Below are positions 1 to 18,649 of a stretch of 35,267 nt of DNA, piece by piece. The stretch covers positions 1-35,267 of the forward strand of contig CAXNDA010000001.1 in NCBI GenBank assembly GCA_964200875.1, written 5' to 3'. The notes beneath the pieces were generated by a model. That model had not been told where the DNA came from. It made no database searches and saw only the letters and a list, made by a program, of their open reading frames with translations. A program made the translations under genes and the position numbers. The stretch's first letter is position 1; every line of letters begins with the position of its first letter. Source of the DNA: Chloroflexota bacterium. GTDB taxonomy: Bacteria > Chloroflexota > Dehalococcoidia > SHYD01.

Positions 1-1116
1 TTCGTAGGCGGCAACCAGTTGCTTTGCGGCAGCTTCCCAGGGGAAGCGCCGCGCCCGTTCGAATCCCCGTTGCTGTTGCTGCCGGCGCAGGTCCCGATCC
101 GTCAGCAGCAGGGCCATGGCGCCCGCCAGCCCCTCGGCGTCGGCAGGCGCTGCGTACAGTGCGGCTTCACCCAGCACTTCGGGCAAGCAGGATGCGTCGC
201 TGGCCACCACCGGCGCCCCGCAGGCGAGCGCCTCCAGTGGGGGCAATCCAAACCCTTCGTAGAAGCTGGGGAAAACGAAGCATGCGGCGCCGGTGAGCAG
301 TGGCGGCAGGTCGGCGTCGGGGACGCTGCCCAGAAACCTCACGCGGCCGGCCAGCTTCAGCTCCTCCACCGCATCGTAGATGGGCTGGTAGAGCCAGCCG
401 GGCGAACCGGCGATGGCCAGGTTCAATCCGGCCGCCTGTCCACGGTCGATCATGATGCGAAAGGCGCGTAGGAGCCCGGCCACGTTCTTGCGCGGCTCGA
501 TGCGCCCAAGCGTGAACAGGTAGCGGCCCGCTTCAAGGTGATACCGCGCACACGCGGCGGCCACGACTTCCTCGGGCGATGGCGTGAAGCCCGCGCTCAC
601 CCCTCCGTAGACCACGCGCACTCGGTTGGGCTGCACGTTGAGCAGGTTCACGACGTCACTGCGGGTGTGCTCCGAATCCGCCAGCACCACCGCAGCGCCG
701 GCCACCGCGTGCGGCACTGCCTTCTCCAGGAAGCGGCGCAATGCCGGAAATGCGTGTTCGGGATGCCGTAGAAAGCTCAAGTCATGCACCGTCACTGCGG
801 CCGGAGCGCGGTGCGGCGGCAGCGTGTAGTCCGTCGCATGGTAGAGATCCAGCGGGCCGGTCCAAGTGTCGACCGCAAGCGGGAGGTGCAAGCGATGCCA
901 CAGGATACCCATCAGGCGCGACGGCAGTGGTAGGCGTGCGGTGCTCACCGAGGGCGCGCCCACCAGGTCCGCCGGGAACTGAGCGCCGCGCGGGCCGAGC
1001 AACACGTACTGGTGGCTCGCTTCGGTCCGCACCAGCGCAGCAACGAGTTCCCGGGTGAGCCGCCCAATGCCGGCCTGCTCCTCGATCGCTGCGGTGACGT
1101 CGATGCCGATACGCAT
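1..1116 (-). CDS. Glycosyltransferase family 4 (GT-B, Glycos_transf_1); the 3' end runs off the left edge of the window
   Basis: Absent from the ORF track because no stop lies inside the window. Manual reverse-strand translation from ATG at 1116 gives MRIGIDVTAAIEEQAGIGRLTREL...TVHDLSFLRHPE...GRIEPRKNVAGLLRAF...FVFPSFYEGFGLPPLEALACGAPVVASD. It stays open in frame to base 1 (372 codons). These are typical GT4 blocks. There is a 1-nt gap to the stop of the upstream gene at 1118. Confidence 0.85.
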   Translation of the reverse strand, partial: MRIGIDVTAAIEEQAGIGRLTRELVAALVRTEASHQYVLLGPRGAQFPADLVGAPSVSTARLPLPSRLMGILWHRLHLPLAVDTWTGPLDLYHATDYTLPPHRAPAAVTVHDLSFLRHPEHAFPALRRFLEKAVPHAVAGAAVVLADSEHTRSDVVNLLNVQPNRVRVVYGGVSAGFTPSPEEVVAAACARYHLEAGRYLFTLGRIEPRKNVAGLLRAFRIMIDRGQAAGLNLAIAGSPGWLYQPIYDAVEELKLAGRVRFLGSVPDADLPPLLTGAACFVFPSFYEGFGLPPLEALACGAPVVASDASCLPEVLGEAALYAAPADAEGLAGAMALLLTDRDLRRQQQQRGFERARRFPWEAAAKQLVAAYE

Positions 1117-1117
1117 A

Positions 1118-2134
1118 TTAGATCTTGCGGCGGAAGAGAAACAGCACGGAGCCGAATGCCACAATGCTCCAGTAGCTGATGCTGCGATCGAGCAACGCTG
1201 CGGCCACAGCCTCTTCTTTGGTGACTCCCGCCAGCATCAGCAGGCCGATCATCCCGGCTTCGACCAAGCCAAGACCGCCAGGCGTGAAGGGAACCACCGT
1301 GAGCAGTGCGTTGGCCAGCGAAAGGAAGACGGCGTGGGGAAAGCTGAGCCCCAGCCCCAGTGCCTGAATCACCAGGAACATCCGAGCCGCTTCGGTACAC
1401 CACACGGCAACGGTCACCGCTGCGCCAGAAGGAGCCTTTCGGAAGCTCCCAAGAATACCGTCCTGGAAACGGAGATAGGCTAACTGGATTCGCTTGGGAA
1501 GAAGTCGATGGACCCGTTCCCGCAGGAACCACATGGCCGCCAAGCCCACCACGCAAAGCCCCACCAGCGTGCCGGCGATAAGCAACATCTTGTCGGCCAC
1601 GTCTGCCTGTGGCCCTTCCAACCTGCCGATGAAGAGCAGCGAGGACACCAGGAGTGAGGCGAGCACCACCGTGTCGAAGGCGCGCTCCGCAACCACCGTG
1701 CCCATGGCAGCAGAGAAGCTGGCGCCGGTGCGCTGCTTAATCTCGTAGCCTCGGTAGGCGTCACCCAGCTTCGCGGGAATCAGGCAATTGGCGAACCAGC
1801 TCAGGTAGATGATGCCCGCCAAGGATCGCAACGTCGGCAGGGGCCGGTCTCGGGCGACATCAGCACTCTTCAGCAGTATCTGCCAGCGCAGCGCCCGGAG
1901 CGGGAAGGTGGTGTAGTAAGCAAGGAATGCAGCAGCGTACAGCCAGGGATCAGCTCCCCGGACCGTGTTCCAGATGGCCTCCGGGTCAAGCTCGAGCCGC
2001 GAGACGAAGAACACGATGATGCCAAAAGCCACCACGAATCCGAGGGCGGAGCGGAGCCGTAACCGGCCACTGAGCTCAAGCGGAGCGTCGTTGTTCTCGG
2101 ATTCTGGTGGGGACACGGGTGTCGTTTGGGACAT
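1118..2134 (-). CDS. Flippase-like integral membrane protein, UPF0104 / LPG_synthase_TM (MprF flippase-domain-like) family
   Basis: The ORF track gives 1118..2179. I prefer the ATG at 2134 (MSQTTPVSPPESEN...), because the longer form would run across the upstream gene's stop at 2140. It is a multi-TM protein with the blocks PLRALRWQILLKS and GDAYRGYEIKQRTGASFSAAMGTVVAERAFD, as I remember them for this family. Confidence 0.7.
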   Translation of the reverse strand: MSQTTPVSPPESENNDAPLELSGRLRLRSALGFVVAFGIIVFFVSRLELDPEAIWNTVRGADPWLYAAAFLAYYTTFPLRALRWQILLKSADVARDRPLPTLRSLAGIIYLSWFANCLIPAKLGDAYRGYEIKQRTGASFSAAMGTVVAERAFDTVVLASLLVSSLLFIGRLEGPQADVADKMLLIAGTLVGLCVVGLAAMWFLRERVHRLLPKRIQLAYLRFQDGILGSFRKAPSGAAVTVAVWCTEAARMFLVIQALGLGLSFPHAVFLSLANALLTVVPFTPGGLGLVEAGMIGLLMLAGVTKEEAVAAALLDRSISYWSIVAFGSVLFLFRRKI

Positions 2135-2139
2135 GCTTC

Positions 2140-3600
2140 CTAATGGGCAGGAGTCTCGGCAAGGTTCTCGGAACCCCATGCGCGCCCGGCCCCAAGCGCC
2201 AGGCCAAACAGCAGGCCGAGTTGTGCGCCGATGCCATGCACATACAGGTTATCAAACAAGTGGTGCACGGCGAGGACAGCGACCAATCCGACTGCTGCCA
2301 GCGTAAGGCCTGCCGGCAACGCTGACTCAGGGTGGGACTGCGTGGCGGCTCGGATGGCGCTTCGCGCTGCGTTTACTGTGCCGCCGAGGAGTGTGGCGAG
2401 CAGCGTCAGGTAGCTCAGCAGGCCCACCAACCCCATCTCGGCCAAGAGATTCAGGTAGAGGTTATGGGCGTGGCCCGGCGCTTGCGGCCAGTTGGGCAGC
2501 GCATAGGCAGGGTACGCCCGGTCGAAGTTGCCGGCGCCCACGCCAAGCAGCGGATTGTCGGCGAACATCCCCTGGGCCGCCTCCCAGATGGCCATGCGCT
2601 GCACAACGGCGAAGTTCGCGCCGGTGAGGTGCACTTCGCGGGGGTCTAACAGCGTGAGGCTGTCGAAGATGGTCGCAACCCGGGTGGCGAGGAACTCAGG
2701 AAGAATGCCGAAACCACCTAGTAACCAGACGGCACTCGCGCCAATCACCAGCAGCGGAGCTGCGAGCAACGTGCGGGGCCGATACGTGAAGGCCATGACC
2801 GCAACGCCCGCCAGCAGTGCCAGCAGGGCGCCCCGTGACAGCGATGCCAGGACCCCCAGGGTCATGACCCCGCCGGCTGTGAGCGCGATGAGAGGCAACG
2901 GTTGGACGAGGCCACGGAGGCCGTTGCGGCTGTGCGCGAACAGCAGCCCGGTCGCCAGCATGACGCCGGTGGTCAGGTAGGCTGCGAAGGGATTCGGTTG
3001 GCCGAAGCTGCCAAAGGAACGCAGATAGCCGCCGCCCAGCAGAAAACCGAGCGGACCGGCTCCGGAGATTGCCTGGTTCAAGCCACGCAATGCTTCCAGC
3101 GAACCGGCAGCGAGAATGGCAACGGTGACCACCACGGCCGCCCGGGGCTCGCGCGCCAGCGACATGCCAAGCGCCAAGGCTACGGCGAATGAAAGCCACT
3201 TGGCCAGCTCCTTGACGGTGAGGTCCAAGGCCACAGCGTCGGGCATGGAGGCGATGACTGCGAGGCAGACCAGGGCGAGCGCCCCCCAGACTGGATGCCA
3301 GAACACACCGAAGTCATGGCGGACGCAGGAGCGGGCCCACCAAATGGCAGCCGAGGCTGCTAACGCGACCTCCACCCCGCCGAGCGCCAGCCCACCCACC
3401 GGAACGCGGAAGTTGTCGCCAAACGGCACCGCGAAGGCGAGCGCAGCAGTGCTGGCGGCCGGCATGAGGGCGAGGAACACCGCCGCAACGGTGACTGCTG
3501 CGATACCTGCGGCATAGGTGACCGGTAGCGTTGCAATGGCGGCAGCGAGGGGTACGCCGGCCACCATCGCTGAAACCGCCGGGCGGGTGAGTCGGATCAA
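2140..3600 (-). CDS. O-antigen ligase-like / Wzy_C family polytopic membrane protein (copy 1)
   Basis: 486-aa ORF with many hydrophobic segments. Family blocks: FGQPNPFAAYL, SLSRGALLALLAGVAVMAF, QRMAIWEAAQGMFADNPLLGVGAGNF, GHAHNLYLNLLAEMGLVGL. The TTG start at 3600 overlaps the stop of the UXS gene (TTGA). Confidence 0.8.
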   Translation of the reverse strand: MIRLTRPAVSAMVAGVPLAAAIATLPVTYAAGIAAVTVAAVFLALMPAASTAALAFAVPFGDNFRVPVGGLALGGVEVALAASAAIWWARSCVRHDFGVFWHPVWGALALVCLAVIASMPDAVALDLTVKELAKWLSFAVALALGMSLAREPRAAVVVTVAILAAGSLEALRGLNQAISGAGPLGFLLGGGYLRSFGSFGQPNPFAAYLTTGVMLATGLLFAHSRNGLRGLVQPLPLIALTAGGVMTLGVLASLSRGALLALLAGVAVMAFTYRPRTLLAAPLLVIGASAVWLLGGFGILPEFLATRVATIFDSLTLLDPREVHLTGANFAVVQRMAIWEAAQGMFADNPLLGVGAGNFDRAYPAYALPNWPQAPGHAHNLYLNLLAEMGLVGLLSYLTLLATLLGGTVNAARSAIRAATQSHPESALPAGLTLAAVGLVAVLAVHHLFDNLYVHGIGAQLGLLFGLALGAGRAWGSENLAETPAH

Positions 3601-4556
3601 CGCTCCGCGGCTGGGGCCTTCAGTCCCAACGCTTCACTCAGCCAAGCTGCGGTACGCGCCAAGCCATCATCCAAGGGTATCGCCGGTTCCCAACCCAGCA
3701 GCCGCTTCGCCTTGCTGATATCCGGCCGCCGTTGTGCAATCTCCTCAGGCCGCGCCGCCACCTGCCGTACCTCGGAGCGAGAACCGGTGACCCGGACCAC
3801 CAGGTTGGCCAATTCCAGCACTGTGAACTCAGCGGGATTCCCCAGGTTGATCACCTCGCCCTGAGTGCCTTCGGTGAACAGCGCCCGCTGCAACCCCTCC
3901 ACCAGGTCGGCCACATAACAGAAGCTCCGGGTCTGGCTGCCGTCGCCATACACCGTCAACGGTTGGCCGCGCAACGCTTGCGTCATGAAGTTCGGTACCA
4001 CCCGGCCGTCTTCCGGCGCATTGCGCGGGCCATAGGTGTTGAAGATGCGGACAATGCGAGCGTCGAGGCCGTGCACCTGACTGTAGTTGTACGTCAACGC
4101 CTCGGCATAGCGCTTCCCCTCGTCGTAGCACGAGCGCGGGCCCACTGGGTTCACGTTGCCCCAATAGGTCTCCGACTGCGGGTGTTCCTTCGGATCGCCG
4201 TACACCTCGGAGGTCGAAGTGACGAGGAACCGGGCGTTGTGACGTTGGGCGAGCTGCAGCGCATGCAGCGTTCCCTGCGAATTGGTGAGCATGGTCTCGA
4301 TCGGGTACCGGCCGTAGCCCTCGGGGCTGGCAGGGCTCGCCATGTGGAAAAGCGCGTCGCAGGGAAGGTCCGGCAACGGGTCGCACACGTCATGGAATCG
4401 GTATTCGAAGCCGGGCTGTTGTTCCAGATGCGCAATGTTGACGCGGCGGCCGGTAAGCAGGTTATCGAGCACCACAACGCTATGGCCGGCGGCGAGTAAT
4501 GCCTCCGCAAGGTGCGAGCCGACAAAGCCGGCTCCACCGGTGATCACGATGTTCAT
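3597..4556 (-). CDS. uxs: UDP-glucuronate decarboxylase (UDP-xylose synthase), extended SDR
   Basis: 319 aa. Motifs: MNIVITGGAGFVGSHL Rossmann motif, TSTSEVYGDPKEHPQSETYWGNVNPVGPRSCYDEGKRYAE (the YxxxK context typical of UXS) and RIFNTYGPR. It has 4-nt overlaps with both neighbouring genes. Confidence 0.88.
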   Translation of the reverse strand: MNIVITGGAGFVGSHLAEALLAAGHSVVVLDNLLTGRRVNIAHLEQQPGFEYRFHDVCDPLPDLPCDALFHMASPASPEGYGRYPIETMLTNSQGTLHALQLAQRHNARFLVTSTSEVYGDPKEHPQSETYWGNVNPVGPRSCYDEGKRYAEALTYNYSQVHGLDARIVRIFNTYGPRNAPEDGRVVPNFMTQALRGQPLTVYGDGSQTRSFCYVADLVEGLQRALFTEGTQGEVINLGNPAEFTVLELANLVVRVTGSRSEVRQVAARPEEIAQRRPDISKAKRLLGWEPAIPLDDGLARTAAWLSEALGLKAPAAER

Positions 4557-5944
4557 GCAGTGGTCCGGTAAGGGCGGAGTGACTGTTCGGCCACCGCGGC
4601 CAGGGCGACGGTGAGCCAGAACAGGAAGGCGAGGTCAATCAGGAAGTAGCTATTGTCGATGAGGCCGTGCACCAAGAAGTCCACCATGCTGGCAGCCAGT
4701 GCCAGCCCCGCCCACTTGGCCCATACGTCCTGCTGGGCGACCAAACGGCGGACGTGACCCCAGAACTGGCACTGAACCAAGAGCAGGGCCGCCAGCCCTA
4801 GTATGCCCATGCGTAACCAGAAGTCAAGAAACAGGTTGTGGGGGTGCGAGATTTCGGGCTCCAGTTTGGCCTCCGCCAGGATGTACCGGGGGTACTGATA
4901 CAGAAAGTTGTCGAGCCCTACGCCGAACAACGGGTGGTCCAGGGCCATCGCCCAAGCTGCCTGCCACACATACACCCTTTGCAGCAAAGGCAGCAGCTGC
5001 CCCATGCGTTCGCCGGCCACTGCCGGTAACACCACTACGGCGACCAGCATCACGGTGGCGGCACCCAACGCCAACCGCCAACGCCAGCCTGCCAGCAGAA
5101 GGAGCCCCGCTGCGGCGATGCCGATAAGCGCACCCCGCGAGTAGGTGAAGTAGAGCACCACCGTCATCAACGCGAGAGCAACCGCTGGAGTTACGCCCAG
5201 GGCGCGGGAACGCCTGACCAGGCCTGCAAACAGCACCAGTGCCAGCGCCACGGGCATGAGGCGTCCCAGCGCCAGGGCCAGGTGGTTGGGGGAGTGGTAG
5301 ATGGCCAGAATCCGTTTGACGCCACCGGTGTTCTCCACCACCCCTATGACCCAGTAGTGGTACAGGCTGAACAGCGCCATGCCAATGCCCAGCCCGGCGA
5401 GGGCCATGAGCGCGCGCCAGACGTCGGCCATGCTGCGCCACGTTGTGGTTGCCAGTAGATAGAACAGCGCCGGTTCAGCGACCACTGTGCGGAGTTCTCG
5501 GAGCGCCTCTTTCATCTGGCCGGTGAAGGGCAACGTGGCCAGGGCCGCCAGCAGAAACGCCGCGGGAGGAAGCAATGCGGTGCGCCACGAGACTTCCTGT
5601 GCCGGTACGCCAGGCGGGCGCCTCAGCAGCCGGGCACTCCATGCGGCGGCGCACAGCAGCACGGTGAATTCGACCAGACTGACCTCGAAGGGGTCGGCTC
5701 GGCCCAGCGCCGTAAGGTCGAAGACCTTGGGGGCCCGATAGGCTGGGGCGGTCAGCGGCACCAACAGCAGGGCGATATCGAGGCGCCACCAGGCCGCCAC
5801 GCCAAAGGCCACGGTGAGCGGTACGGCCAGCCACCACGGCGCGAAGTAGTAGGCCGCCAACAATCCCACGAGCAGGGCGCCCGCCAAAAGGTCGCCGCTG
5901 GTCTGGCGGGTGAGCGTCGCGTCGGTGCTCATCACGCTGGTCAT
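4553..5944 (-). CDS. O-antigen ligase-like / Wzy_C family polytopic membrane protein (copy 2)
   Basis: 463 aa. Family blocks: YHSPNHLALALG, FTYSRGALIGIAAAGLLLL, RVYVWQAAWAMALDHPLFGVGLDNF, SHPHNLFLDFWLRMGILGLAALLL. ATGA overlap with the GT-C gene's stop. Confidence 0.8.
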   Translation of the reverse strand: MTSVMSTDATLTRQTSGDLLAGALLVGLLAAYYFAPWWLAVPLTVAFGVAAWWRLDIALLLVPLTAPAYRAPKVFDLTALGRADPFEVSLVEFTVLLCAAAWSARLLRRPPGVPAQEVSWRTALLPPAAFLLAALATLPFTGQMKEALRELRTVVAEPALFYLLATTTWRSMADVWRALMALAGLGIGMALFSLYHYWVIGVVENTGGVKRILAIYHSPNHLALALGRLMPVALALVLFAGLVRRSRALGVTPAVALALMTVVLYFTYSRGALIGIAAAGLLLLAGWRWRLALGAATVMLVAVVVLPAVAGERMGQLLPLLQRVYVWQAAWAMALDHPLFGVGLDNFLYQYPRYILAEAKLEPEISHPHNLFLDFWLRMGILGLAALLLVQCQFWGHVRRLVAQQDVWAKWAGLALAASMVDFLVHGLIDNSYFLIDLAFLFWLTVALAAVAEQSLRPYRTTA

Positions 5945-7569
5945 TCTACGGAGTACACCATGAACACCGGTGTCCCGCTGCGCTCGTAGAAGGTCTGCTC
6001 CAACTTGGTGCGCTTTCCGGCTTGGGCCGCCGCTTGCTCAAAGGCTGCCATTCTGGGAAACGCAGTGTAGTCTTCGCCGTGGAACAGGTAGCGCTGCTCG
6101 GCGGTAGCCAAGGGTAACCGCGCCGCGAAGCCGGGGTCGGGTTCGGCCGTGTAGCCGAAGACCTCGAGCGGGCGGACGCGCCCAGCCGTCACCAATTGCA
6201 CCGTGTAGCGGATGCCCCAATCCATAGCGAGCGGCGCCGGCACCCCGTTTTCGTCAAGGTAGGAGGCCAGCTTGTACACCGCATCGGAATGACCGCGATG
6301 CCCGCCGGTGCGTACCAGAGCCTCGTGATACTGTGCGTCTACCGTCAAGTTTCCCGCTGCCAGGATGGCGATGGTGAGGGGCGCGGCAATGTGCCCCAGC
6401 CGACGGAGAGCGCCGCTCTGCGCCCGGACCGCCGCAGCCAGTGCGACCACAGGAATTGCGCACAAGAGCGGCAGCAGGATGAACAGATGGGTGGGCCAAA
6501 TACCGGAGATGGTGACCGGGCTTTGGACCACCACCAAGAACGTGAAGCCCAGCAGCAGAGCAATCGCGCCACGCAGCGGCGGCCAGCGTACGGCAAGAGC
6601 GCAAGCTGTGGCTGCGCCCACCAGCACCGCGGGCGGGAACAGGTGGTTGCCGTATAGGCCGCCCAGGAACCAGAAGTGCCCGCCGTGCAGCAGAGCCCAA
6701 AGCGTATCGAGCCTCGCCAGCAGGTTTGCTGGATAGTCGGCGTTGTGGACGCCGTAGGTGGTGACTTCTGCGCTCTTGGCCACCGCATCCAGCGTGGCGC
6801 CCGTCTGCAGGTTGTAGATCAACAGCGGCGCCGCCCCGCCCACGAATGCCACGGCGACGGCGACGGCCGGCTTCAGCGCACGCCTCAGGCGGGCAACCGC
6901 GCCCCCAGGATTGCGCCAGGTCCGCCAGAGCGTTGGCCCCTGCCACGCTAATCCTATAAATCCGAGCGCCAGGATGGCCCAGAGGAAGAGGATCTTGGTG
7001 CTTAAGCCCAGGCCCAGCAGCAGGCCGGCGCCGGCCAGCCACCATACGCTGCCGGTGCGGCGCCAAGCCAGCAGCAACAGCAACGCCCCCATCAGCCAAA
7101 GCGCCATTAGCGAGCTGACATGAACCCCCTGGCGGGCGTAAAAGACCCAGGACGGGTGGGTGGCGAGCAGCAAGGCCGCACCCGCGCCCGCCATTCGGCT
7201 CGAAAACAGGTGGCGAACCCAGACGGCGGTGAGGGCCACGGTCAGCGCTCCGCCTGCGATGGTCATGAGCCGCAGCGCGCCGACGCTGGGGCCGAGCACG
7301 CTGAAGAACGCCAGCGAGGCGTAGGTATGCACAGCGCCCACATAGTCGAATGCCATGAGCGGCCACGTGCGGCCAAAGAGTGCGATTCCGTGGGGCCGGA
7401 CGAGTTCCGGCTGTCGTCCTTGCAGCAGATCGAGCGCTGGGATCGCGTCCGCAGCCTCATCGTAGTACAGCCCCGGCAGCGTCAGGTGGTAGGCCGCCAG
7501 GGCGATGAAGACGAATGCCGGGACTGCGACCAGGGCGGTCTCCAACGCCCATGAACGGCGGAGGTTCAC
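5941..7569 (-). CDS. GT-C fold glycosyltransferase, ArnT/PMT-like (family 39/83 type), with a C-terminal soluble domain
   Basis: 542 aa with a GTG start. The first loop after TM1 reads LPGLYYDEAADAIPALDL (the acidic DE motif of GT-C enzymes). About 11 or more hydrophobic segments follow, including GLGLSTKILFLW. The last ~150 aa are non-hydrophobic. Confidence 0.7.
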   Translation of the reverse strand: MNLRRSWALETALVAVPAFVFIALAAYHLTLPGLYYDEAADAIPALDLLQGRQPELVRPHGIALFGRTWPLMAFDYVGAVHTYASLAFFSVLGPSVGALRLMTIAGGALTVALTAVWVRHLFSSRMAGAGAALLLATHPSWVFYARQGVHVSSLMALWLMGALLLLLAWRRTGSVWWLAGAGLLLGLGLSTKILFLWAILALGFIGLAWQGPTLWRTWRNPGGAVARLRRALKPAVAVAVAFVGGAAPLLIYNLQTGATLDAVAKSAEVTTYGVHNADYPANLLARLDTLWALLHGGHFWFLGGLYGNHLFPPAVLVGAATACALAVRWPPLRGAIALLLGFTFLVVVQSPVTISGIWPTHLFILLPLLCAIPVVALAAAVRAQSGALRRLGHIAAPLTIAILAAGNLTVDAQYHEALVRTGGHRGHSDAVYKLASYLDENGVPAPLAMDWGIRYTVQLVTAGRVRPLEVFGYTAEPDPGFAARLPLATAEQRYLFHGEDYTAFPRMAAFEQAAAQAGKRTKLEQTFYERSGTPVFMVYSVE

Positions 7570-7605
7570 CTGCGATGTGCTTTACGCTGCCTATCGCCCA
7601 CCGGA

Positions 7606-9219: not shown

Positions 9220-9274
9220 ACACGACTCCGAGGTGGGTTGGAGGGTTCGGCCTTGAAGGCCATGCTAGCCGTGA

Positions 9275-9280
9275 AGTATA
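9275..9280 (-). promoter_or_regulatory. Possible -10 box (TATACT on the minus strand) for the 9219..1 operon
   Basis: Locally AT-richer spacer between the rsmG stop (9325) and the GH start (9219). The plus strand reads agtata at 9275-9280. The only -35 candidates (GTGAAA/TGAAAT) are weak. Confidence 0.25.
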
Positions 9281-9324
9281 CCAGAGCTACGAGCAGTATT
9301 TCACTGCATATGACGAATCGACGA

Positions 9325-10047
9325 CTAGAGCGGCCGCTTGGCCGGCATCCCGGGCCGCCGAGGGTAGCGCTCTGGTGTGGGCCCGGCCTTCTCTACCAGG
9401 ATCACGCTGCGATCATCGCCGAGAGCGTCGAGGGTCACCGGCTCTACCGATCGCAGCCAGCCGTCCAGCAGTGTAAGGGCGTGGGTTGCCGTCGCCACCT
9501 CCTGCGCCATGTCTCCCTTCTTCAGCGCAATAGCCAGGCCGCCAACTCGCAGGAAGGGAAGCTGATATTCCACCAGTACCGCCAACGCATCGACAGCGCG
9601 GGTGATCGTGACATCGAAGGCACCACGGAACTGCGGGAGGTGCCCCTCGGTCTCGGCCCGGCCGGTCACCACGCTGACATTCGGCAACCCAAGGTCCGTC
9701 ACCATGGCGGACAGAAACGCCGTCTTACGAGCGTGTGCCTCGAGGAGTGTGACCCTTAGTCCGGGTCTGGCGATGGCGAGCGGAAGGCCGGGAAAGCCGC
9801 CACCCGAGCCGATATCGAGCAAGGTCTTTGCCTGGTCGGGAATGTAAGGCAGCGCCGTGAGTGAATCGAGAAAATGCTTGACATAAATGTCAGAAGTATC
9901 GGTGATCGCCGTCAGGTTTACCCGCTGGTTCCACTCCTGGAGCAGTGCGCAGAAGCGTGCGAACTGCTCCAGGAGTGGAACCGTTAGGACAACGCCGAGT
10001 TCGGCGGCTCCGAGGGTCAGGGTGCTTTCGGGTGATGGTGGTGTCAT
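9325..10047 (-). CDS. rsmG: 16S rRNA (guanine527-N7)-methyltransferase RsmG (GidB)
   Basis: Motifs: QFARFCALLQEWNQRVNLTAITDTSDIYVKHFLDSL and LLDIGSGGGFPGLPLAIARP (SAM-binding). I prefer the ATG at 10047 (MTPPSPEST...). The track's 10146 start adds 33 aa that are partly encoded by a hairpin repeat. Confidence 0.85.
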   Translation of the reverse strand: MTPPSPESTLTLGAAELGVVLTVPLLEQFARFCALLQEWNQRVNLTAITDTSDIYVKHFLDSLTALPYIPDQAKTLLDIGSGGGFPGLPLAIARPGLRVTLLEAHARKTAFLSAMVTDLGLPNVSVVTGRAETEGHLPQFRGAFDVTITRAVDALAVLVEYQLPFLRVGGLAIALKKGDMAQEVATATHALTLLDGWLRSVEPVTLDALGDDRSVILVEKAGPTPERYPRRPGMPAKRPL

Positions 10048-10123
10048 GGTGGAGTCGGGGAGGGTGGCCGGCTGGCCTACGGGTAAGAACTCAGTGTTTC
10101 GGGTGCTGTGGGCATAAACCCGT

Positions 10124-10148
10124 GTCATGCCGACGCAAGGAGGCATCC
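10124..10148. repeat. Short hairpin repeat gtcATGCCgacgcaaggaGGCATcc
   Basis: 5-bp inverted arms ATGCC/GGCAT around a 10-nt loop. It belongs to the same family as 10187..10212, in the opposite orientation. Confidence 0.55.
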
Positions 10149-10186
10149 CTTCGTTCCCGGACAGTTACCACCACCCGGTACTAAAG

Positions 10187-10212
10187 GATTCCTCACTCCG
10201 TTCGGAATGACA
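10187..10212. repeat. Short hairpin repeat ggATTCCtcactccgttcGGAATgac (inverted copy of the 10124 element)
   Basis: Its reverse complement, gtcATTCCgaacggagtgaGGAATcc, aligns with 10124..10148. The G-to-T change in the 5' arm is matched by a C-to-A change in the 3' arm. Confidence 0.55.
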
Positions 10213-10307
10213 TGGCCCCCTCAACTGTGAGCTCGTACGCCTACGGGTCGGGCGGCGGTTTCGAGACGTGGTTATGGTACACTACCGATGCGGTTGAACC
10301 GCCTGTT

Positions 10308-10811
10308 ATGCACACGCTAAACACCCCACGCACCCTGGCGCGTTGCCTCTCGCCCCTCCTGTGCCTGCTCTCCACCATCGCCTGCGATCGTGTAGCAGGT
10401 ACGTCGGCCACGCCCGCGCTGCTGGCTACGCCCACGAGCGTGCGTCCGGCCAACTCACCGGCGCCGCTGGTGACTCCGTCGGCCGCCGGCACACCCGTCG
10501 GGAACGACAACCTGAAGGTGGCGCGCCCCACCGTAAGGCAAGAGGTTAAGAGTCCGATCAGCGTGCAGGGGCAGGCTAGGGTCTTCGAGGCTAACGTGCA
10601 GATTGCTTTGAAGGACAAGGGCGGGCAGACGCTCGCGAGCAGCTTCACCACCGCTTCGAAAGGCGCGCCCGATTGGGGCGATTACAAGGCTGACCTTCCC
10701 TTTCGGGTGACCGTCCAACAGGAGGCTACTCTGGAGGTGTTCGCGCTGAACGCGCGGGACGGTTCACCGCAGTTTGTGGTGGCAGTGCCGGTCACGCTGC
10801 TGCCGAACTGA
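10308..10811 (+). CDS. Secreted or lipoprotein with a Gmad2-type immunoglobulin-like domain
   Basis: I prefer the ATG at 10308: MHTLNTPRTLARCLSPLLCLLSTIAC is a signal peptide with a Cys at a lipobox-like position. An A/P/T/S linker follows, then VKSPISVQGQARVFEANVQIALKDKGGQTL...GAPDWGDYKADLPF...LEVFALNARDGSP, as I remember for Gmad2 domains. Confidence 0.55.
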   Translation: MHTLNTPRTLARCLSPLLCLLSTIACDRVAGTSATPALLATPTSVRPANSPAPLVTPSAAGTPVGNDNLKVARPTVRQEVKSPISVQGQARVFEANVQIALKDKGGQTLASSFTTASKGAPDWGDYKADLPFRVTVQQEATLEVFALNARDGSPQFVVAVPVTLLPN

Positions 10812-10839
10812 GCGTGGCCGCTTCGGGTGACGTGATCCG

Positions 10840-11952
10840 GTGCGCGTAGGCATCGACGCTCGGTTGCTGGCCTACCGTCAGGGCGGGACGAGCGTGTACA
10901 CGCGGCAACTGCTGCACCATCTCCCCCTGGCTGCGCCCAAGGATGACTTCGTGGCGCTGACCAGCCGGAAGCAGCCCCGCTATGCCGGACAGCCCGCCGC
11001 AGTCGACAGCCATCCGTTGTGGACGCCGCCGCACCATCACTTGGAGCAGTGGAGCCTCCCCGTGGAGCTGGTGCCGGCGAGGTTGGACCTGCTGCACAGT
11101 GTTGATTTTATTGCGCCCACCCACCGGCCCTGCCCGGCGGTCATCACGGTGCACGACCTCGCCTTTCTGGTGTATCCCGACACTATGACGACTGAGAGCC
11201 ACCGCTACTATGGGCAGATTGGCAAAGCGGTTGCCGCTGCCGACGCTATCATCGCGGTGAGCGAGGCCACCCGGCGTGATCTGGAACGGCTGTTGCATGT
11301 GCCGCCCGAGCGGGTTCAGGTAGTGCACCATGGCGTGGCTGATGTCTACGGGCCCCGGCCGGCCGAGGAGGTCGAAGCATTCTGCAAAGCTCACGAGTTG
11401 CCTTCGACCTTCATGCTCTGGGTGGGGGCACTGGAGCCCCGCAAGAATCTGCCCTGCCTGTTCCGCGCCGTCGCCTCCGCCACGCCATCGCTGCCCGATG
11501 CTCTGCGGACTCTCGTCATCGTGGGCGTCAAAGGGTGGACCTTTGAGCAAGCGCAGCAGGAGTTCGAACGCCTGGGTCTGGCGGCGCAGACGATCCTGTT
11601 CGGCGATGCGACCGAGGATGACTTAGCGATGCTTTACAACGCTGCCTGGGTGTTCGCCTACCCGTCGCTGTACGAGGGCTTCGGCCTGCCGCCGCTCGAG
11701 GCGATGGCATGCGGCACACCGGTGCTGAGCGCCAACGTATCGGCCATGCCCGAGGTGCTGGGAGATGCGGCGCGCTTCTTTGACCCGCAAGACGACCAAG
11801 CCTTGGCTGGCCTTTTACGAGAACTGGCTCTCGATGAGCCGCAGCAGCAGCGTCTGGCAGCCGCAGGCAGGGCGCGGGCTGCGGGCTTCACCTGGGAGGC
11901 GACCGCCCGTGCCACGCTCGACGTCTATCGCGGTGTGGTGCAGCGCTCATGA
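10840..11952 (+). CDS. Glycosyltransferase family 4 (paralog of the gene at 1..1116)
   Basis: GTG start. Blocks: MRVGIDARLLAYRQGGTSVYTRQLL, TVHDLAFLVYPD, LEPRKNLPCLFRAV, FAYPSLYEGFGLPPLEAMACGTPVLSAN. They are collinear with the same blocks in the left-edge GT4. Confidence 0.85.
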   Translation: MRVGIDARLLAYRQGGTSVYTRQLLHHLPLAAPKDDFVALTSRKQPRYAGQPAAVDSHPLWTPPHHHLEQWSLPVELVPARLDLLHSVDFIAPTHRPCPAVITVHDLAFLVYPDTMTTESHRYYGQIGKAVAAADAIIAVSEATRRDLERLLHVPPERVQVVHHGVADVYGPRPAEEVEAFCKAHELPSTFMLWVGALEPRKNLPCLFRAVASATPSLPDALRTLVIVGVKGWTFEQAQQEFERLGLAAQTILFGDATEDDLAMLYNAAWVFAYPSLYEGFGLPPLEAMACGTPVLSANVSAMPEVLGDAARFFDPQDDQALAGLLRELALDEPQQQRLAAAGRARAAGFTWEATARATLDVYRGVVQRS

Positions 11953-13196
11953 AGGTGCTCTTCGTCACCATCGAGCCACCCTGGCCGATCATCGGCGGCA
12001 CTCCCATGCGCTCGTACAACCTCATCATGCGGATCGCGCAGAACCACGAGGTCTATGTGGCGTGCCCAGCCACCGTGAGCCAGGTGGCGGTGATGCAAGA
12101 ACTCTTCGGCGCCTCAGTGAAGCGCATCGTCTCGGTGCCACTGCCGCCGCACCGTTCGCTGTGGCGGAGAGCAGTCGGGACGCTCATTGACCCAGCGCCG
12201 GACCTGGCCTACCGCAACTTTCAGCCTCAGCTTGCGCACGCCATCCGGGAGCAGCTCCGCGACGTTGCCATCGACGTCGTGCACCTCGTGGGGCTCGAGT
12301 CGGTGGGTGCGCTCATGGGGCCCGACTGGGCGCCGCCCCAGGCGAAGGCGGTGCTGGTGGATGAAGTGAATGCCGAGCACGTATTGCAGCAACGGGCCCA
12401 GCGGGTGGAGCTGCGGCAGCCGCGGCGCTGGCCCGGCGCTCTGTACAGTTGGATACAGGCCCGCAAGCTCAAGAACTACGAGCGACGGGCATTGGTTTCG
12501 GCGGGTGCGGTCACCTCGGTGTCACCCGGCGATGCGGCGATTCTACGCCGGCTCGCGCCGGGTGTGGCCATCCACGTGGTGCCAAATGGCGTGGACACCA
12601 AGCTGTACGCGCCGGCGTCCTCCGCTCCGGAGGGCAGCGACATCGTGTTCTCAGGGACCATGGACTTCCGCCCGAATGTCGACGCGGTCCGCTGGTTTGT
12701 GGCCGAAATCTGGCCGGCGGTGCGTGCCGCGGCACCGGAAGCCCGCCTGATCATTGTCGGCCGCAATCCCGCGCCCCCCGTCCGCCGGCTCGCTGCGGCT
12801 GACGTCATCATCACCGGTCAGGTGCCCGATGACCTGCCGTACCTGCAGCAGGCGGCGGTCTACGTGGTGCCCATGCGTTTCGGCGGCGGTAGCCGGCTGA
12901 AGCTGCTGCAGGCCATGTCGTGCGCGCTCCCCATGGTCTCCACCACGCTGGGCGCCGATGGCGTGGCCGTCACGCCGGGCGAGCAATTGCTAATAGCAGA
13001 CGATCCTGACGACTTCGCCCGAGCTGTGCTGCGCCTGCTGGCCCACCCCGAGGAGGGCGCTCGCCTGGGGGTAGCTGGGCGGAAGCTCGCAGCGGCCTAT
13101 GACTGGGACGTGGTGGCCGAACAGCTTGAGGCCGCGTACGCAGCGGCAGTCGCCCGGGCTGATACCGGCTCAGCCGAACGAACCCCGCGCGGATGA
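11949..13196 (+). CDS. Glycosyltransferase family 4 (second type)
   Basis: 415 aa. Blocks: MKVLFVTIEPPWPIIGGTPMRSYNLI, FSGTMDFRPNVDAVRWFVAEIWPAV, VPMRFGGGSRLKLLQAMSCALPMVST. ATGA overlap with the upstream GT4. Confidence 0.8.
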   Translation: MKVLFVTIEPPWPIIGGTPMRSYNLIMRIAQNHEVYVACPATVSQVAVMQELFGASVKRIVSVPLPPHRSLWRRAVGTLIDPAPDLAYRNFQPQLAHAIREQLRDVAIDVVHLVGLESVGALMGPDWAPPQAKAVLVDEVNAEHVLQQRAQRVELRQPRRWPGALYSWIQARKLKNYERRALVSAGAVTSVSPGDAAILRRLAPGVAIHVVPNGVDTKLYAPASSAPEGSDIVFSGTMDFRPNVDAVRWFVAEIWPAVRAAAPEARLIIVGRNPAPPVRRLAAADVIITGQVPDDLPYLQQAAVYVVPMRFGGGSRLKLLQAMSCALPMVSTTLGADGVAVTPGEQLLIADDPDDFARAVLRLLAHPEEGARLGVAGRKLAAAYDWDVVAEQLEAAYAAAVARADTGSAERTPRG

Positions 13197-14899
13197 CACG
13201 GCGGCTGAGTGGGCTTGGGTTCGCAGCGGCCGTTCTGCTCGGCGGAACGGTCTTGCTGCTGACGGCTTCGGGCACGGCCTCCCGCGAGCATTGGGCGGAA
13301 GACCTTACCGGTGAGGCCAGCCCAGTCCAGCAGGCGAAGGCGCTGGTTGGTCTGGTGCGCCAGCGCCCAATTCCCACCGCCGATTTCGCCCCAACCACGC
13401 ACGCTGGCCTCCCCCCCCTGGGAGCGAACACCTTCTTTGAGCAGGAGGTCGAAGAGTGGAAGGTGCGCCGCAGTATGGAGATGCTGCGCGATGCTGGGGT
13501 GAAGTGGATCCGGCAAGAGTTCCCTTGGGATCGCATTGAACCCTCGGTGAAAGGACGCTACGAGGACGCCTTCGGCTCCACGTGGACCAACTACGACCGG
13601 ACGGTGCGGTTGGCGCAGGAATACGGCCTGCAAGTCATGCCTCGTCTTACCCTGCCGCCGAACTGGACACGTGCCGACAACTCGGTGCCCAGAGCGCCGC
13701 CCGATAACTACAACGACTACGGGGATTTCGTGGCGGCGGTGGTCGAGCGCTATCGGGGCAGGGTGCACTACTACCAGCTCTGGAACGAACCGAACACCGT
13801 ACTGGAGTGGGGGAAGCCACCGAACGCCGCTGACTTCGTACGCCTGCTGCGCGTCGGTTACGAACGGGCGAAACGGGCCGATCCGGCGGTCGTAATCATC
13901 GCCCCGGCCCTTTCGCCGACCATCGGCACGCCCGACGGCGCCAACGTGAGCGACCTGACGTTTCTCCAGGAGATGTACGATCAGGGCGCATCCGCAGCCT
14001 TCGACATCATGAGCGCGCAGGGGTACGGCCTGTGGACCGGGCCCGGCGATCGGCGGGCTGATGCCTACCGGACCAACTTGGCGCGCGTGCAATTGGTGCG
14101 CGAGCTGATGGTAAAGAACGGCGATGGCCGCAAGCCGATATGGCTGGCCGAGATGGGCTGGTCGGCGCTGCCGCCCGATTTTCCGGGCGATGCGATCCAT
14201 GGGCGGGTGACCGAGGAGCAGCAGGCGCGGTATACCGCGCAGGCCCTGCAGCGCATTCAGGCGGAATGGCCGTGGGTTGGCGTTACCTTCCTGTGGCACT
14301 TCCGCCGCGTGTCTGATGAGCAGCGCTCGCAGGCCGATTTCTATTTCCGCATGGTCGATCCCGACTTCACCGCACGCCCGGTCTATGGCGCCGTGCAGGC
14401 CGTGGGCGCCCAACCGCCGGTGTTGAACTATGGTTGGCGGCCCATCACCCATGTCGCCATCACGCGGTCGTCCGGTTGGGAATCGGCCGTGCGGACGGTC
14501 GACGGCATCGGGGTGCCGGCACTCGCCGCCCGGGACCCTGGCGAATCCTTGTCGTTTCGGGTGCGGGGCCGCCAGGTGCTGCTGCACCTACCGCCGGTGC
14601 CGGGCGGTGGCTCGTTGGCAGTGACGGTCAACCAGCGGCCGAGCGGGGTGATCCGGCCACGGGCCGTTGGGGCCGGGCGGGCCGCTGCCACGCTTCTGCC
14701 CGGCACCAACGCCTTACCCGACGGCGTGAACACCATCGAACTGAGGCCGGTGGGCGACGGTTTGGTCGTGCTCGCCGGCATCCAAGTACTGACTGCTGAC
14801 CGAGAGCCTGCTCCGATGGCGGCGGGCGTCATGGTGCTGCTGGCGGCATTGCTGGCACTGCGGCTCACGTTCGGGGCGGGTGCGGGGAGGGGCCGGTGA
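13193..14899 (+). CDS. Membrane-anchored clan GH-A (GH5/GH39-like) glycoside hydrolase, paralog B
   Basis: 568 aa. N-terminal anchor GLGFAAAVLLGGTVLLL. Candidate catalytic blocks YYQLWNEPN and IWLAEMGWS, plus DFYFRMVDPDFTARPVYGAVQA. C-terminal TM MAAGVMVLLAALLALRL. Collinear with 7606..9219. Confidence 0.65.
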   Translation: MTRRLSGLGFAAAVLLGGTVLLLTASGTASREHWAEDLTGEASPVQQAKALVGLVRQRPIPTADFAPTTHAGLPPLGANTFFEQEVEEWKVRRSMEMLRDAGVKWIRQEFPWDRIEPSVKGRYEDAFGSTWTNYDRTVRLAQEYGLQVMPRLTLPPNWTRADNSVPRAPPDNYNDYGDFVAAVVERYRGRVHYYQLWNEPNTVLEWGKPPNAADFVRLLRVGYERAKRADPAVVIIAPALSPTIGTPDGANVSDLTFLQEMYDQGASAAFDIMSAQGYGLWTGPGDRRADAYRTNLARVQLVRELMVKNGDGRKPIWLAEMGWSALPPDFPGDAIHGRVTEEQQARYTAQALQRIQAEWPWVGVTFLWHFRRVSDEQRSQADFYFRMVDPDFTARPVYGAVQAVGAQPPVLNYGWRPITHVAITRSSGWESAVRTVDGIGVPALAARDPGESLSFRVRGRQVLLHLPPVPGGGSLAVTVNQRPSGVIRPRAVGAGRAAATLLPGTNALPDGVNTIELRPVGDGLVVLAGIQVLTADREPAPMAAGVMVLLAALLALRLTFGAGAGRGR

Positions 14900-15864
14900 G
14901 GGCCGGCGTCTCGGTCATCATGACGGTGCTGAATGAGGCGGCCTCGCTGCCCGCGGTCCTGCAAGGGCTCGAACAGCAGACCCGACGGCCCGACGAGGTG
15001 GTGGTCGTCGACGGCGGCAGCACCGATGGCACGTTGGCGCTGCTGCACGGGTACGCAGGCCCGCTGACGCTCCGTGTGCTGGAACTTCCAGGGGCGAACA
15101 TCTCCCAAGGCCGCAACGCTGCAATCGAGGCCGCTACAGGCCCGGTGATAGCCATCACTGATGCTGGGGTTCGCCTGGAGCCTGCGTGGCTGGCGGCGCT
15201 GGTGCAACCTATGGAGGATGACGGCGCCGTAGCGGTGGCGGGCTTCTTCCATTCGGACCCTGCCGGCCTGTTTGAAGCTGTCCTGGGCGCGACCACACTG
15301 CCGGCAGCGTCGGACGTGAACCCGGCGACGTTCCTGCCCTCCAGCCGGTCAGTGGCGGTCACCAAAGAGGTGTGGCGGCGAGCTGGGGGGTACCCCGAGT
15401 GGCTGGACTACTGTGAGGATCTGCTTTTTGACTTCGCGGTGCTGAACCTGGGTGTACGCTTTGCTTGGGCCCCGGCCGCGCTGGCGCACTTTCGCCCCCG
15501 CCCCACCCTGGCGGCGTTCTTCAAACAGTACTACCGCTACGCCAGAGGCGATGGTAAGGCCGGCCTTTGGCGGCGGCGGCACGCTATCCGTTACGCCACC
15601 TATGCGGCTGGGGCTCTTGCCACGCTCGCCGTGCCGCGATTCCCCTGGCTGCTCCCCGCGATGCTGGCGGCTGGCATCGGCTACTGCGCCACACCGATCC
15701 GCCGGTTGCGCCCGTGGCTGCAGGGGCGTCCCGCAAGCGTGTGGTGCAGGGCCCTTCCGCTGGTGCCGTTGATACGGCTGACGGGGGATGTGGCGAAGTT
15801 GCTGGGCTATCCCGCCGGGTTATGGTGGCGCTTGCGGAACCCCGCTAGCCGGGGACAACGGTGA
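14896..15864 (+). CDS. Glycosyltransferase family 2 with a hydrophobic C-terminal region
   Basis: GTG start in a GTGA overlap. Motifs: VSVIMTVLNEAASLPAVLQGLEQQTRRPDEVVVVDGGSTDGT, ITDAG (DxD-like), GGYPEWLDYCEDLLFD. C-terminal hydrophobic stretches: YATYAAGALATLAVPRFPWLLPAMLAAGIGY and ALPLVPLI. Confidence 0.8.
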   Translation: MRAGVSVIMTVLNEAASLPAVLQGLEQQTRRPDEVVVVDGGSTDGTLALLHGYAGPLTLRVLELPGANISQGRNAAIEAATGPVIAITDAGVRLEPAWLAALVQPMEDDGAVAVAGFFHSDPAGLFEAVLGATTLPAASDVNPATFLPSSRSVAVTKEVWRRAGGYPEWLDYCEDLLFDFAVLNLGVRFAWAPAALAHFRPRPTLAAFFKQYYRYARGDGKAGLWRRRHAIRYATYAAGALATLAVPRFPWLLPAMLAAGIGYCATPIRRLRPWLQGRPASVWCRALPLVPLIRLTGDVAKLLGYPAGLWWRLRNPASRGQR

Positions 15865-16681: not shown

Positions 16682-16691
16682 GGCCCGGGTG

Positions 16692-18329: not shown

Positions 18330-18360
18330 GGATTGAGGGCGAGTGGAGGTGACGATGCTG

Positions 18361-18588: not shown

Positions 18589-18649
18589 GGACGGTCCTTA
18601 TCGAGGTCGAATTGCGGATATCTCTACAGTGGCTCGCGCACTCCCGAGC

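Follow-up and report, generated by a model that had tools for sequence, protein, structure and literature searches.

A conserved two-armed gene cluster of Chloroflexota that may assemble an envelope heteroglycan by a Psl-like lipid-carrier pathway

The Psl pathway of Pseudomonas aeruginosa is a Wzx/Wzy pathway in which PslJ is the Wzy protein, and its periplasmic endoglycosidase PslG has been proposed to act as a failsafe by cutting between repeat units (PMC13434223). Chloroflexota are reported, in a passage of PMC13319060 that cites Sutcliffe, to lack the genes for lipopolysaccharide (LPS) biosynthesis and the barrel assembly machinery (BAM); some members look diderm-like without these genes, and the extra envelope layers of the phylum have been suggested to consist of polysaccharide or protein. 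Here we describe a stretch of 35 267 nt from a Chloroflexota bacterium of the Dehalococcoidia (assembly GCA_964200875.1, contig CAXNDA010000001.1, positions 1 to 35 267 of the forward strand; hereafter ‘the window’), whose first 15 864 nt carry two divergent arms of glycan-assembly genes. These encode glycosyltransferases (GTs) of several families, two Wzy_C proteins (WzyC_A and WzyC_B), one PslG-like GH39 glycosidase per arm (GH39_L and GH39_R), a UDP-glucuronate decarboxylase (UXS) and a flippase-like protein of the MprF type (PplT, also UPF0104). The original prediction, made from the sequence, held that this combination could not be mapped to a described system. On comparison, the PslG-like GH39 proteins let it map fairly well onto Psl (pslA-L), the closest described system, although the lack of Wzx and the constancy of PplT do set it apart; a search of the literature returned no characterised cluster with close homology to the block and no described Chloroflexota cluster with these parts. 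We give an even chance to the reading that the locus is a conserved Chloroflexota envelope-heteroglycan cluster, which follows the lipid-carrier logic of Wzy_C-type pathways (Wzx/Wzy/WaaL, Psl-like) and has its primer encoded elsewhere in the genome. The cluster looks like a rearranged and dispersed version of a known type of pathway rather than new machinery, and its product is most likely a polymer of the cell surface with xylose and heptose among its sugars.

The arrangement of the cluster is not a chance one. When the open reading frames (ORFs) of 80 genome loci, together with loci fetched via homologues of GH39 and WzyC_B, were compared with the window, the gene order of the left arm recurred in at least 12 other genomes at 35-77% amino acid identity (L007, L008, L009, L010 in part, L011, L027, L030/L098, L043, L094, L095, L096 and L097). 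The recurring order is (rsmG), GH39, (GT-C), WzyC_B, UXS, WzyC_A, PplT, GT4, GT4, methyltransferase, GT4, GT9. Both arms share the same divergent layout in the window and its near-identical contig L001, and in L007, L008, L009, L095 and L096, even where identity falls to about 45-50%. Only the closer relatives retain the right arm: in L011, L027, L030/L098, L043, L094 and L097 it is missing or has given way to other genes, although the left arm is still there. GT-C is absent from L094-L096 and GH39_L from L095. The invariant core is thus formed by WzyC_B, UXS, WzyC_A, PplT and the GT4 genes, with GH39, GT-C, GT9, the methyltransferase and the right arm as frequent additions. UXS is among the best-conserved genes (57-77% identity across the relatives), and the PplT gene lies 3' of WzyC_A in every orthologous cluster. 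Homologues of GT-C, GH39 and Wzy_C were named only from metagenome-assembled genomes of Chloroflexota, mostly Dehalococcoidia. The gene rsmG immediately precedes the cluster in L007, L008, L009, L030/L098, L043, L095 and L096, and dnaA, like rsmG a gene of the origin region, adjoins the cluster or its GH39/Wzy_C core in L089 (~5184-6599), L094 (~4141-5553) and L090; the GC skew of the window itself is monotonic, so no origin lies inside it.

Both Wzy_C proteins clear the Pfam cut-off (81.4 and 78.3 bits versus 31.7) and share a block ‘HxHN...G(L/I)xG’. The statement that the locus is without Wzx/Wzy hallmarks is not supported in that form, as the two proteins are themselves a Wzy/WaaL hallmark and WzyC_B has a WaaL fold. 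Sequence searches of the PDB with both Wzy_C proteins and with GT-C gave nothing useful, and a fold search was required. The AlphaFold2 (AF2) model of WzyC_B, the sole Wzy_C protein modelled and the one to which the fold assignment applies, has a pLDDT of 87.7, and its only significant match in the PDB is the O-antigen ligase WaaL (7tpg, E=3.8e-7, TM score 0.58/0.65). Ten residues are invariant among 32 homologues (R149, R152, R211, R313, R323, H367, H369, N370, D374 and H426). By its Wzy_C score, modelled WaaL fold and conserved His and Arg residues, WzyC_B is a predicted member of the O-antigen ligase family. WzyC_A has homologues in 293 cluster representatives at E<1e-30, and a weak match to TfpM (8e-5).

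The two GH proteins are predicted to be PslG-like GH39 enzymes that possess both the acid/base and the nucleophile glutamate. GH39_R matches PslG (4zn2) at 3.5e-10, with both catalytic motifs aligned: its QLWNEPN with WNEPN (acid/base) and its LAEMGW with TEWGW (nucleophile). GH39_L matches the PslG entries 5bx9 (1.5e-8) and 5jvk (3.4e-10), and its motifs QIWNEPN and FNEFGW correspond to those of GH39_R. Its architecture comprises an N-terminal transmembrane (TM) segment (9-27), a TIM barrel, a beta-sandwich and a C-terminal TM segment (512-530); the TM segments of GH39_R lie at 5-23 and 542-560. More than 1275 homologues were found, and in a set of 120 the motif WxEPN is retained by 118 and xExGW by 117. 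The GH39 genes also have weak Pfam matches to Cellulase, GH42 and GH10. The two copies are paralogous, as had been claimed (39% identity, E=1e-99), and inverted repeats between them are still detectable at the DNA level (I1-I3).

In other Chloroflexota a GH39-like domain is fused to a WzyC_B-like domain. The L089/L090 fusion protein (927 aa, L089:11789-14572) is 37% identical to GH39_L (1e-59) and 36% identical to WzyC_B (4e-36), and further fusions were found in P0292, P0275 and P0273. The fused GH39 motifs are readable in two copies and degenerate in both, each having lost a catalytic glutamate (WDQPN in L089, AVAFGW in P0292), and the L089 fusion is directly preceded by a free-standing, intact GH39 gene (P0171). 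The topology of the fusion is consistent with the C-terminal helix of GH39 leading into a cytoplasmic N-terminus of the WaaL-like protein.

With regard to sugar supply, UXS aligns with human UXS1 (4gll, 2b69) over residues 2-308 at E=3.5e-106, while other sugar enzymes of the short-chain dehydrogenase/reductase (SDR) family match at 1e-41 or weaker; it is predicted to be a genuine UDP-glucuronate decarboxylase. A GT9 gene, situated left of the window, is related to heptosyltransferases I, II and III but scores below their equivalog cut-offs (100 versus 170 bits). In L098, and in that cluster only, ADP-heptose genes are adjacent: gmhA overlaps the GT9 stop (TIGR00441, 222.9 bits versus 209.45) and rfaE domain II stands on the divergent side (201.9 bits versus 181.5). 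Because these genes are attached there, the GT9 is very probably a heptosyltransferase fed by ADP-heptose. Among the GT4 enzymes, whose best PDB relatives are MshA and PimA (over the C-terminal half only for 1..1116), the one at 1..1116 matches Glycos_transf_1 (9.4e-32) and Glyco_transf_4 and is paralogous to its ‘MRxGID’ counterpart in the right arm (36% identity, E=5e-59), again in agreement with the original prediction. The GT4 at 11949..13196 matches TIGR03087 at 3e-64, under the cut-off of that family. The sole GT2 of the locus has no TM segment and matches soluble GT-A enzymes, with chondroitin synthase and GalT1 as best PDB relatives. No processive membrane GT2 synthase was found, and a GtrB/ArnC/DPMS-type polyprenyl-phosphate-sugar synthase was ruled out for this gene on its want of TM helices and of such homology.

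Two further membrane proteins complete the left arm. The GT-C protein exceeds the PMT_2 cut-off (34.6 versus 26.1 bits), and its D37-E38, within ‘LPGLYYDEA’ of the first outer loop, is invariant in 30 homologues. Its AF2 model (pLDDT 93.3) has a small C-terminal outer domain, and Foldseek placed it closest to ArnT (5f15, 1e-7), with STT3/PglB about equal and ALG12, Pmt4 and Emb also matched. The modelled fold and the acidic motif in the first extracytoplasmic loop identify it as a predicted GT-C enzyme. Its relatives in Chloroflexota genomes number 387 and come from every class of the phylum. The PplT protein, with about seven hydrophobic segments, scores 184.3 bits against PF03706 (cut-off 33.4) and 139.3 bits against TIGR00374 (cut-off 43.2), which places it in the LPG_synthase_TM family, that of the MprF flippase domain; its flippase function is putative.

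The reported absence of phosphoglycosyltransferase (PGT), MOP/Wzx, Wzm/Wzt, polysaccharide co-polymerase (PCP) and outer membrane polysaccharide export (OPX) domains was confirmed with Pfam for 1..15864. For Wzm/Wzt, neither ABC_tran nor ABC2_membrane was matched in either arm or in the left extension. PCP (Wzz/Wzc) and OPX (Wza) are absent from the window and its relatives, and a cell that has no outer membrane would not be expected to contain them. A MOP protein near the L098 cluster was rejected as Wzx, being a bona fide MurJ (TIGR01695, 282 bits versus 235.55). In L096, a 495-aa protein with CoA_binding_3 and Bac_transf domains is encoded 82 nt after GT9 on the same strand; over 322 aa it matches TIGR03025 (8e-45) and WcaJ (1.9e-42), and by these domains is predicted to be a WcaJ/WbaP-type polyprenyl glycosylphosphotransferase. 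Given this PGT and the ADP-heptose genes of L098, the lack of a primer here more likely reflects gene dispersal than primer-less chemistry. The same two finds weaken the notion of a non-canonical pathway put forward in the original prediction, although the absence of Wzx and ABC exporters from 13 clusters and the presence of PplT in all of them still speak for it. The Psl-like reading is in turn supported by the conserved order, the L096 PGT, the L098 gmhA/rfaE pair, the GH39-WzyC_B fusions and the retained GH39 glutamates, and an ordinary lipid-carrier pathway with scattered genes is our default.

From the families, folds, synteny and fusions we infer how such a pathway could run, including each step, substrate and acceptor. 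UXS would supply UDP-xylose (its enzyme identity being assigned by homology), and ADP-heptose would come from genes elsewhere. The soluble GT-B and GT-A transferases, of which the left arm contributes three GT4 and one GT9 and the right arm two GT4 and one GT2, would assemble a repeat unit or oligosaccharide at the cytoplasmic face with polyprenyl phosphate as carrier, and the SAM-dependent methyltransferase would O-methylate one sugar. Every orthologous cluster offers a single dedicated candidate for moving the lipid-linked glycan across the membrane, the MprF-type PplT/UPF0104 protein. On the outer side, the two Wzy_C enzymes may polymerise the unit, ligate it to the final acceptor, or both, and the ArnT/STT3-fold GT-C could either add a residue from a polyprenyl-phosphate sugar or transfer the glycan. 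The tethered GH39 endoglycosidases would, in the way proposed for PslG, cleave the polymer so as to control chain length, release the chains or clear them as a failsafe, presumably acting beside WzyC_B, to which a GH39 domain is fused in other Chloroflexota. PCP and OPX would be unneeded where there is no outer membrane.

Several points weigh against this Psl-like pathway. No PGT gene lies in the 41.7 kb made up of the window (1..35267) and its 6.4-kb left extension, and one is adjacent in just 1 of about 13 orthologous clusters (L096); no Wzx/MOP flippase or ABC exporter occurs in any of these clusters, nor in the window or L001. The absence of GT-C and GH39_L from some orthologous clusters makes both accessory to the core. 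Polymerase and ligase cannot be distinguished by Wzy_C sequence or fold, and WaaL, a ligase, is the one relative with a solved structure that turned up. Characterised GT9 enzymes (CAZy) act on lipid A-Kdo glycolipids and are not known to act on undecaprenyl-diphosphate carriers. The MprF-type domain has been found experimentally to move glycerophospholipids, not polyprenyl-diphosphate glycans (bioRxiv 10.1101/2022.03.11.483950, PMC12713373). A lipoglycan made without any primer, the main rival reading but one that we consider unlikely, would need neither PGT nor Wzx: the GT4 and GT9 enzymes would glycosylate a membrane glycerolipid, PplT would flip it, and the WaaL-fold enzymes and GT-C would extend or decorate it outside. 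Its models are PimA/PimB on phosphatidylinositol, WaaC/WaaF/WaaG on lipid A-Kdo and GpgS on phosphatidylglycerol (PG), and its product would be an LPS-like or lipoarabinomannan-like amphiphile in a phylum reported without LPS. Besides the 12 of 13 genomes that have no PGT near the cluster, and the pairing of PplT in all orthologous clusters with Wzx in none, this account draws on the partnership of UPF0104 with GT4 enzymes in the glycolipid operons gpgSDF and hexSDF (PMC12713373) and on UPF0104 fusions to GT-B, O-antigen-ligase and methyltransferase domains, Chloroflexi included (bioRxiv 10.1101/2022.03.11.483950). The combination of GT9 with gmhA/rfaE, GT4 and WaaL-fold enzymes also amounts to a parts list of an LPS core, and MshA and PimA are the nearest PDB relatives of the cluster GT4s; yet the similarity of the GT4s to lipid glycosyltransferase families is unspecific and falls far short of family cut-offs. 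This account also has against it that PslG-type glycosidases, like Wzy_C enzymes, are familiar from polyprenyl-linked pathways, that the L096 PGT sits in operon position after GT9, and that a flippase role of stand-alone UPF0104 proteins is unproven (PMC12713373). A more specific form, in which PplT replaces Wzx and an LPS-like amphiphile carries a core of heptose, xylose and O-methyl sugar, built by GT9 and GT4 on a membrane lipid and then extended or ligated outside by WaaL-fold enzymes acting as one physical unit with a PslG-like glycosidase, seems to us decidedly unlikely.

O-glycosylation of an S-layer or other surface protein, an unlikely alternative, would keep the polyprenyl carrier but cast one Wzy_C protein as a PglL/WsaB-type O-oligosaccharyltransferase and GT-C as a PMT- or STT3-like enzyme. 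The Wzy_C family does include O-oligosaccharyltransferases, in line with the TfpM match of WzyC_A, and the GT-C fold is about equally near to ArnT, STT3/PglB and Pmt4. A methyltransferase, a GT cluster and a WbaP-type PGT together recall the S-layer glycosylation clusters of Gram-positive bacteria. Archaeal UPF0104 proteins are tied to S-layer N-glycosylation, beside PMT/STT3-like enzymes and AglD-type GT2s (PMC5898192). Against this, neither the cluster nor its relatives contain a candidate glycoprotein gene, two dedicated endoglycosidases suit a polymer better than a short protein glycan, and GT-C is dispensable, missing as it is from three orthologous clusters; the oligosaccharyltransferase motif WWDxG was not seen, although no search aimed at it was made. 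It is improbable, too, that the arms are separate pathways lying side by side, with the right arm making or remodelling a different glycan. Each arm has its own promoter region and its own GH39, and the left stays where the right is gone or replaced; but the arms keep company in the clusters named above despite their divergence, have two paralogue pairs in common, and the right arm is without a membrane enzyme of its own. That the GH39 genes serve the degradation of polysaccharide, such as xylan or glucan utilisation, is highly implausible. The weak Cellulase, GH42 and GH10 matches and database names such as ‘endo-1,4-beta-xylanase’ or ‘cellulase family’ would suit it, whereas the genes share their operons with a biosynthetic UXS gene and with genes for Wzy_C enzymes and glycosyltransferases, their products are anchored by TM segments at both ends or, in relatives, fused to a Wzy_C enzyme, and the arms hold no genes for sugar uptake or catabolism. 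A catabolic role of the kind seen in polysaccharide utilisation loci was rejected on this context and topology.

An ORF listing recovered all 12 genes of 1..15864 at the coordinates first given for them (Table 1). The coordinates and Pfam families bear out two divergent, tightly packed glycan-assembly arms, and Pfam, together with NCBIfam, agreed with the family assignments made from the sequence (three GT4, LPG_synthase_TM, two Wzy_C, SDR, PMT_2, GidB, Gmad2 and GT2).

Table 1. Genes of the two arms, of the left extension on contig L001, and of the interrupted pyrimidine block in the window
Feature	Position	Strand	Basis or remark
GT4, ‘MRIGID’ type	1..1116	-	partial at window edge; 382 aa on L001 (13441-14589)
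MprF-type flippase-like, LPG_synthase_TM/UPF0104/PplT	1118..2179	-	Pfam PF03706, TIGR00374
WzyC_A, ~12 TM	2140..3600	-	Pfam Wzy_C 7.3e-23
UXS, UDP-glucuronate decarboxylase	3597..4556	-	homology to human UXS1
WzyC_B	4553..5944	-	Pfam Wzy_C 6.8e-22, WaaL-like model
GT-C, PMT_2 / ArnT-STT3 fold, ~11 TM	5941..7569	-	Pfam PMT_2, fold model
GH39_L, PslG-like glycosidase	7606..9219	-	PDB PslG matches, motifs
rsmG, 16S rRNA m7G methyltransferase	9325..10146	-	Pfam GidB 2.2e-47; start likely ~10047
Gmad2-domain putative lipoprotein, right-arm gene 1	10308..10811 (ORF from 10212)	+	Pfam Gmad2 2.9e-22
GT4, ‘MRVGID’ type	10840..11952	+	Pfam; paralogue of 1..1116
GT4, related to TIGR03087 ‘stp1’ exopolysaccharide glycosyltransferases	11949..13196	+	Pfam Glyco_trans_1_4 5e-28
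GH39_R, second PslG-like glycosidase	13193..14899	+	PslG 4zn2 match, GH39_L paralogue
GT2 (GT-A), soluble, last right-arm gene	14896..15864	+	Pfam Glycos_transf_2 2e-23
L001, past base 1: rest of GT4			382 aa
L001: GT4			380 aa; 1-nt gap
L001: SAM methyltransferase			4-nt overlap
L001: GT4			381 aa
L001: GT9			397 aa; 1-nt overlap
L001: MFS transporter	L001:18978-20210		121 nt after GT9
L001: SDR		opposite	after MFS transporter
GNAT	23341-23949		interrupts pyrimidine block
269-aa protein	26684-27493		interrupts pyrimidine block
Glycerophosphodiester phosphodiesterase	27490-28275		interrupts pyrimidine block
Dual-specificity phosphatase-like	28277-28810		interrupts pyrimidine block

Of the six 4-nt overlaps counted in the original prediction, five stand (4553-4556, 5941-5944, 11949-11952, 13193-13196 and 14896-14899), and the one at 3597-3600 exists only if WzyC_A begins with TTG. 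Gene calls on identical contigs start WzyC_A 33 nt later (475 aa; alternative start 3567), which leaves a 29-nt gap to UXS in place of the overlap. The flippase-like gene encodes 338 aa in public calls, against 353 aa for the ORF, and probably starts at 2134. rsmG does lie between the arms, as described, but on the minus strand; it reads in the same direction as the left arm, of which it may be the first gene. The rsmG-GH39_L gap measures 105 nt and holds one promoter-like match (9304-9275), overall not above chance, and scans of the window for promoters, terminators, tRNAs and Rfam families gave nothing above chance, with no tRNA or Rfam match. A 25-nt palindrome, 96% complementary with a 6-nt spacer, lies inside the 5' rsmG coding region at 9927-9982 (GGTTCCACTCCTGGAGCAGTGCGCA / TGCGAACTGCTCCAGGAGTGGAACC). 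The Gmad2 protein shows a signal-like ‘...LLCLLSTIAC’ when counted from the Met at 10308, and has a homologue at the same place in L007, L095 and L096 (by Pfam Gmad2 in L096). The right arm ends at 15864 because of a convergent gene for a SAM hydroxide adenosyltransferase (SAM_HAT_N/C; 15845-16681, minus strand), which overlaps the GT2 stop by 20 nt and occupies the equivalent position in L095 and L096; a 338-aa plus-strand ORF at 15788..16804 was discarded as a spurious Arg/Gly-rich reading of high-GC sequence.

To the left, the cluster continues past base 1. The UXS protein has exact matches on 12 metagenome contigs, and one 46-kb contig (L001), 99.98% identical to window 1..14556, adds 6.4 kb on this side. 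The left arm thereby grows from the seven genes first counted to 11. The missing parts had been thought perhaps to sit there, but no WbaP/WecA, Wzx, Wzm/Wzt or PCP/OPX gene occurs in the 6.4-kb extension; directly left of base 1, in place of a WbaP/WecA-type primer and Wzx, are GT4, methyltransferase, GT4, GT9 and MFS genes. The MFS_1 (major facilitator superfamily) transporter gene, 3' of GT9 on the same strand, recurs in L097 (17654-18421), a cluster 64-77% identical to ours, and has no specific family match. Glycolipid flippases of the MFS are known, LtaA being one, and this transporter could belong to the pathway.

Some further observations concern the relatives. In the L030/L098 lineage the divergent arm has given way (L098:3651-5984) to another gene of the LPG_synthase_TM family and to a PRK07233-type FAD amine-oxidase-like gene, both upstream of rsmG, with Zincin_1, DUF5656, rfaE domain II and murJ on the opposite strand. 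In L010, the gene directly upstream of GH39_L (7574-8200) encodes a DedA/VTT-domain protein, of a family that includes undecaprenyl-phosphate recyclers. GT-C homologues occur outside such a cluster in about 65 other Chloroflexota loci. Beyond the Dehalococcoidia-type clade their neighbours were set aside as uninformative, the context being a different one (FecR-domain protein, radical SAM, other GT-Cs), and ORF clustering around GT-C homologues was noisy owing to overlapping high-GC ORFs. One Anaerolineae locus (L014:3573-17591) has four GT-C (PMT_2) genes in an array, one with a CBM6 domain, along with two GT2 genes and a GT2-GT4 fusion, and looks like a separate, GT-C-heavy envelope glycan cluster.

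The window has a G+C content of 62-69%, and its right half carries housekeeping genes: an SBP_bac_5 protein, a CofD-family protein, gatB, pyrB, pyrC, carA, carB and mgtE. Unrelated genes, tightly packed, break up the series of pyrB, pyrC, carA and carB (22337-32442). The CofD-family protein (450 aa, 18650-20002) has hydrophobic N-terminal segments and is encoded between gatB and the SBP gene; the CofD and SBP5 neighbour order is also found in L007 and L095.

As it is chromosomal, conserved in order across many uncultured lineages and equipped with GT-C, GH39 and WzyC_B-type parts that have hundreds to thousands of homologues in the phylum, the cluster is a good candidate for building an envelope layer, and it would predict xylose, heptose and an O-methyl sugar among the sugars of that layer. 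Of wider interest are the constancy of an MprF-type flippase-like protein where Wzx is never present, the repeated fusion of a PslG-like domain to a WaaL-fold enzyme, with degenerate catalytic residues in the two readable fused copies, and the putative GT9/ADP-heptose module outside LPS-producing bacteria. Should the LPS-like amphiphile prove true, a phylum regarded as devoid of LPS would possess a lipoglycan ‘outer layer’, which could be relevant to the debate over diderm-like envelope images of Chloroflexota.

The locus shares features with several described systems. An ArnT-like GT-C with an invariant Asp-Glu pair and a nearby decarboxylase of the UXS/ArnA family recall the ArnT/Gtr/GacL systems; yet the GT2 here has no TM segment, unlike ArnC, GtrB or DPMS, no GtrA- or ArnE/F-type flippase is present, and the GT-C is missing from three orthologous clusters. 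With the MprF-type modules, gpgSDF of P. aeruginosa and hexSDF of C. difficile, the locus has in common a stand-alone UPF0104/PplT beside GT4 genes, and the archaeal neighbourhood of UPF0104, GT2 and PMT/STT3-like genes mirrors the PplT, GT2 and GT-C of the window (PMC5898192). These modules and the archaeal AglD C-terminal domain deal with simple modified lipids or a dolichyl-phosphate sugar, in contrast to the multi-GT glycan suggested here, and no deacetylase is present at the locus. The LPS core (waa) system is approached through GT9 (compare WaaC/WaaF), the GT4s (compare WaaG), the WaaL-fold WzyC_B and the gmhA/rfaE domain II of L098; it differs in that the GT9 falls below the equivalog cut-offs and that no lipid A or Kdo genes turned up at the locus, no genome-wide search having been made. 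From Psl, the closest of these systems, the locus departs in lacking a PslA-type PGT, PslK/Wzx and PslD/PslE (OPX/PCP), in having two Wzy_C proteins where Psl has one, two copies of GH39, both of which bear a further TM segment at the C-terminus, and low sequence identity to PslG (E ~1e-8 to 1e-10), and in adding UXS, GT9, a methyltransferase, GT-C and PplT. It resembles Psl in possessing a membrane-anchored GH39 gene inside a biosynthetic operon, with both catalytic glutamates aligned to those of PslG, and in the combination of several GT4s and a GT2 with a putative Wzy-type membrane enzyme, joined in the relative L096 by a PGT of the predicted WbaP/WcaJ type.

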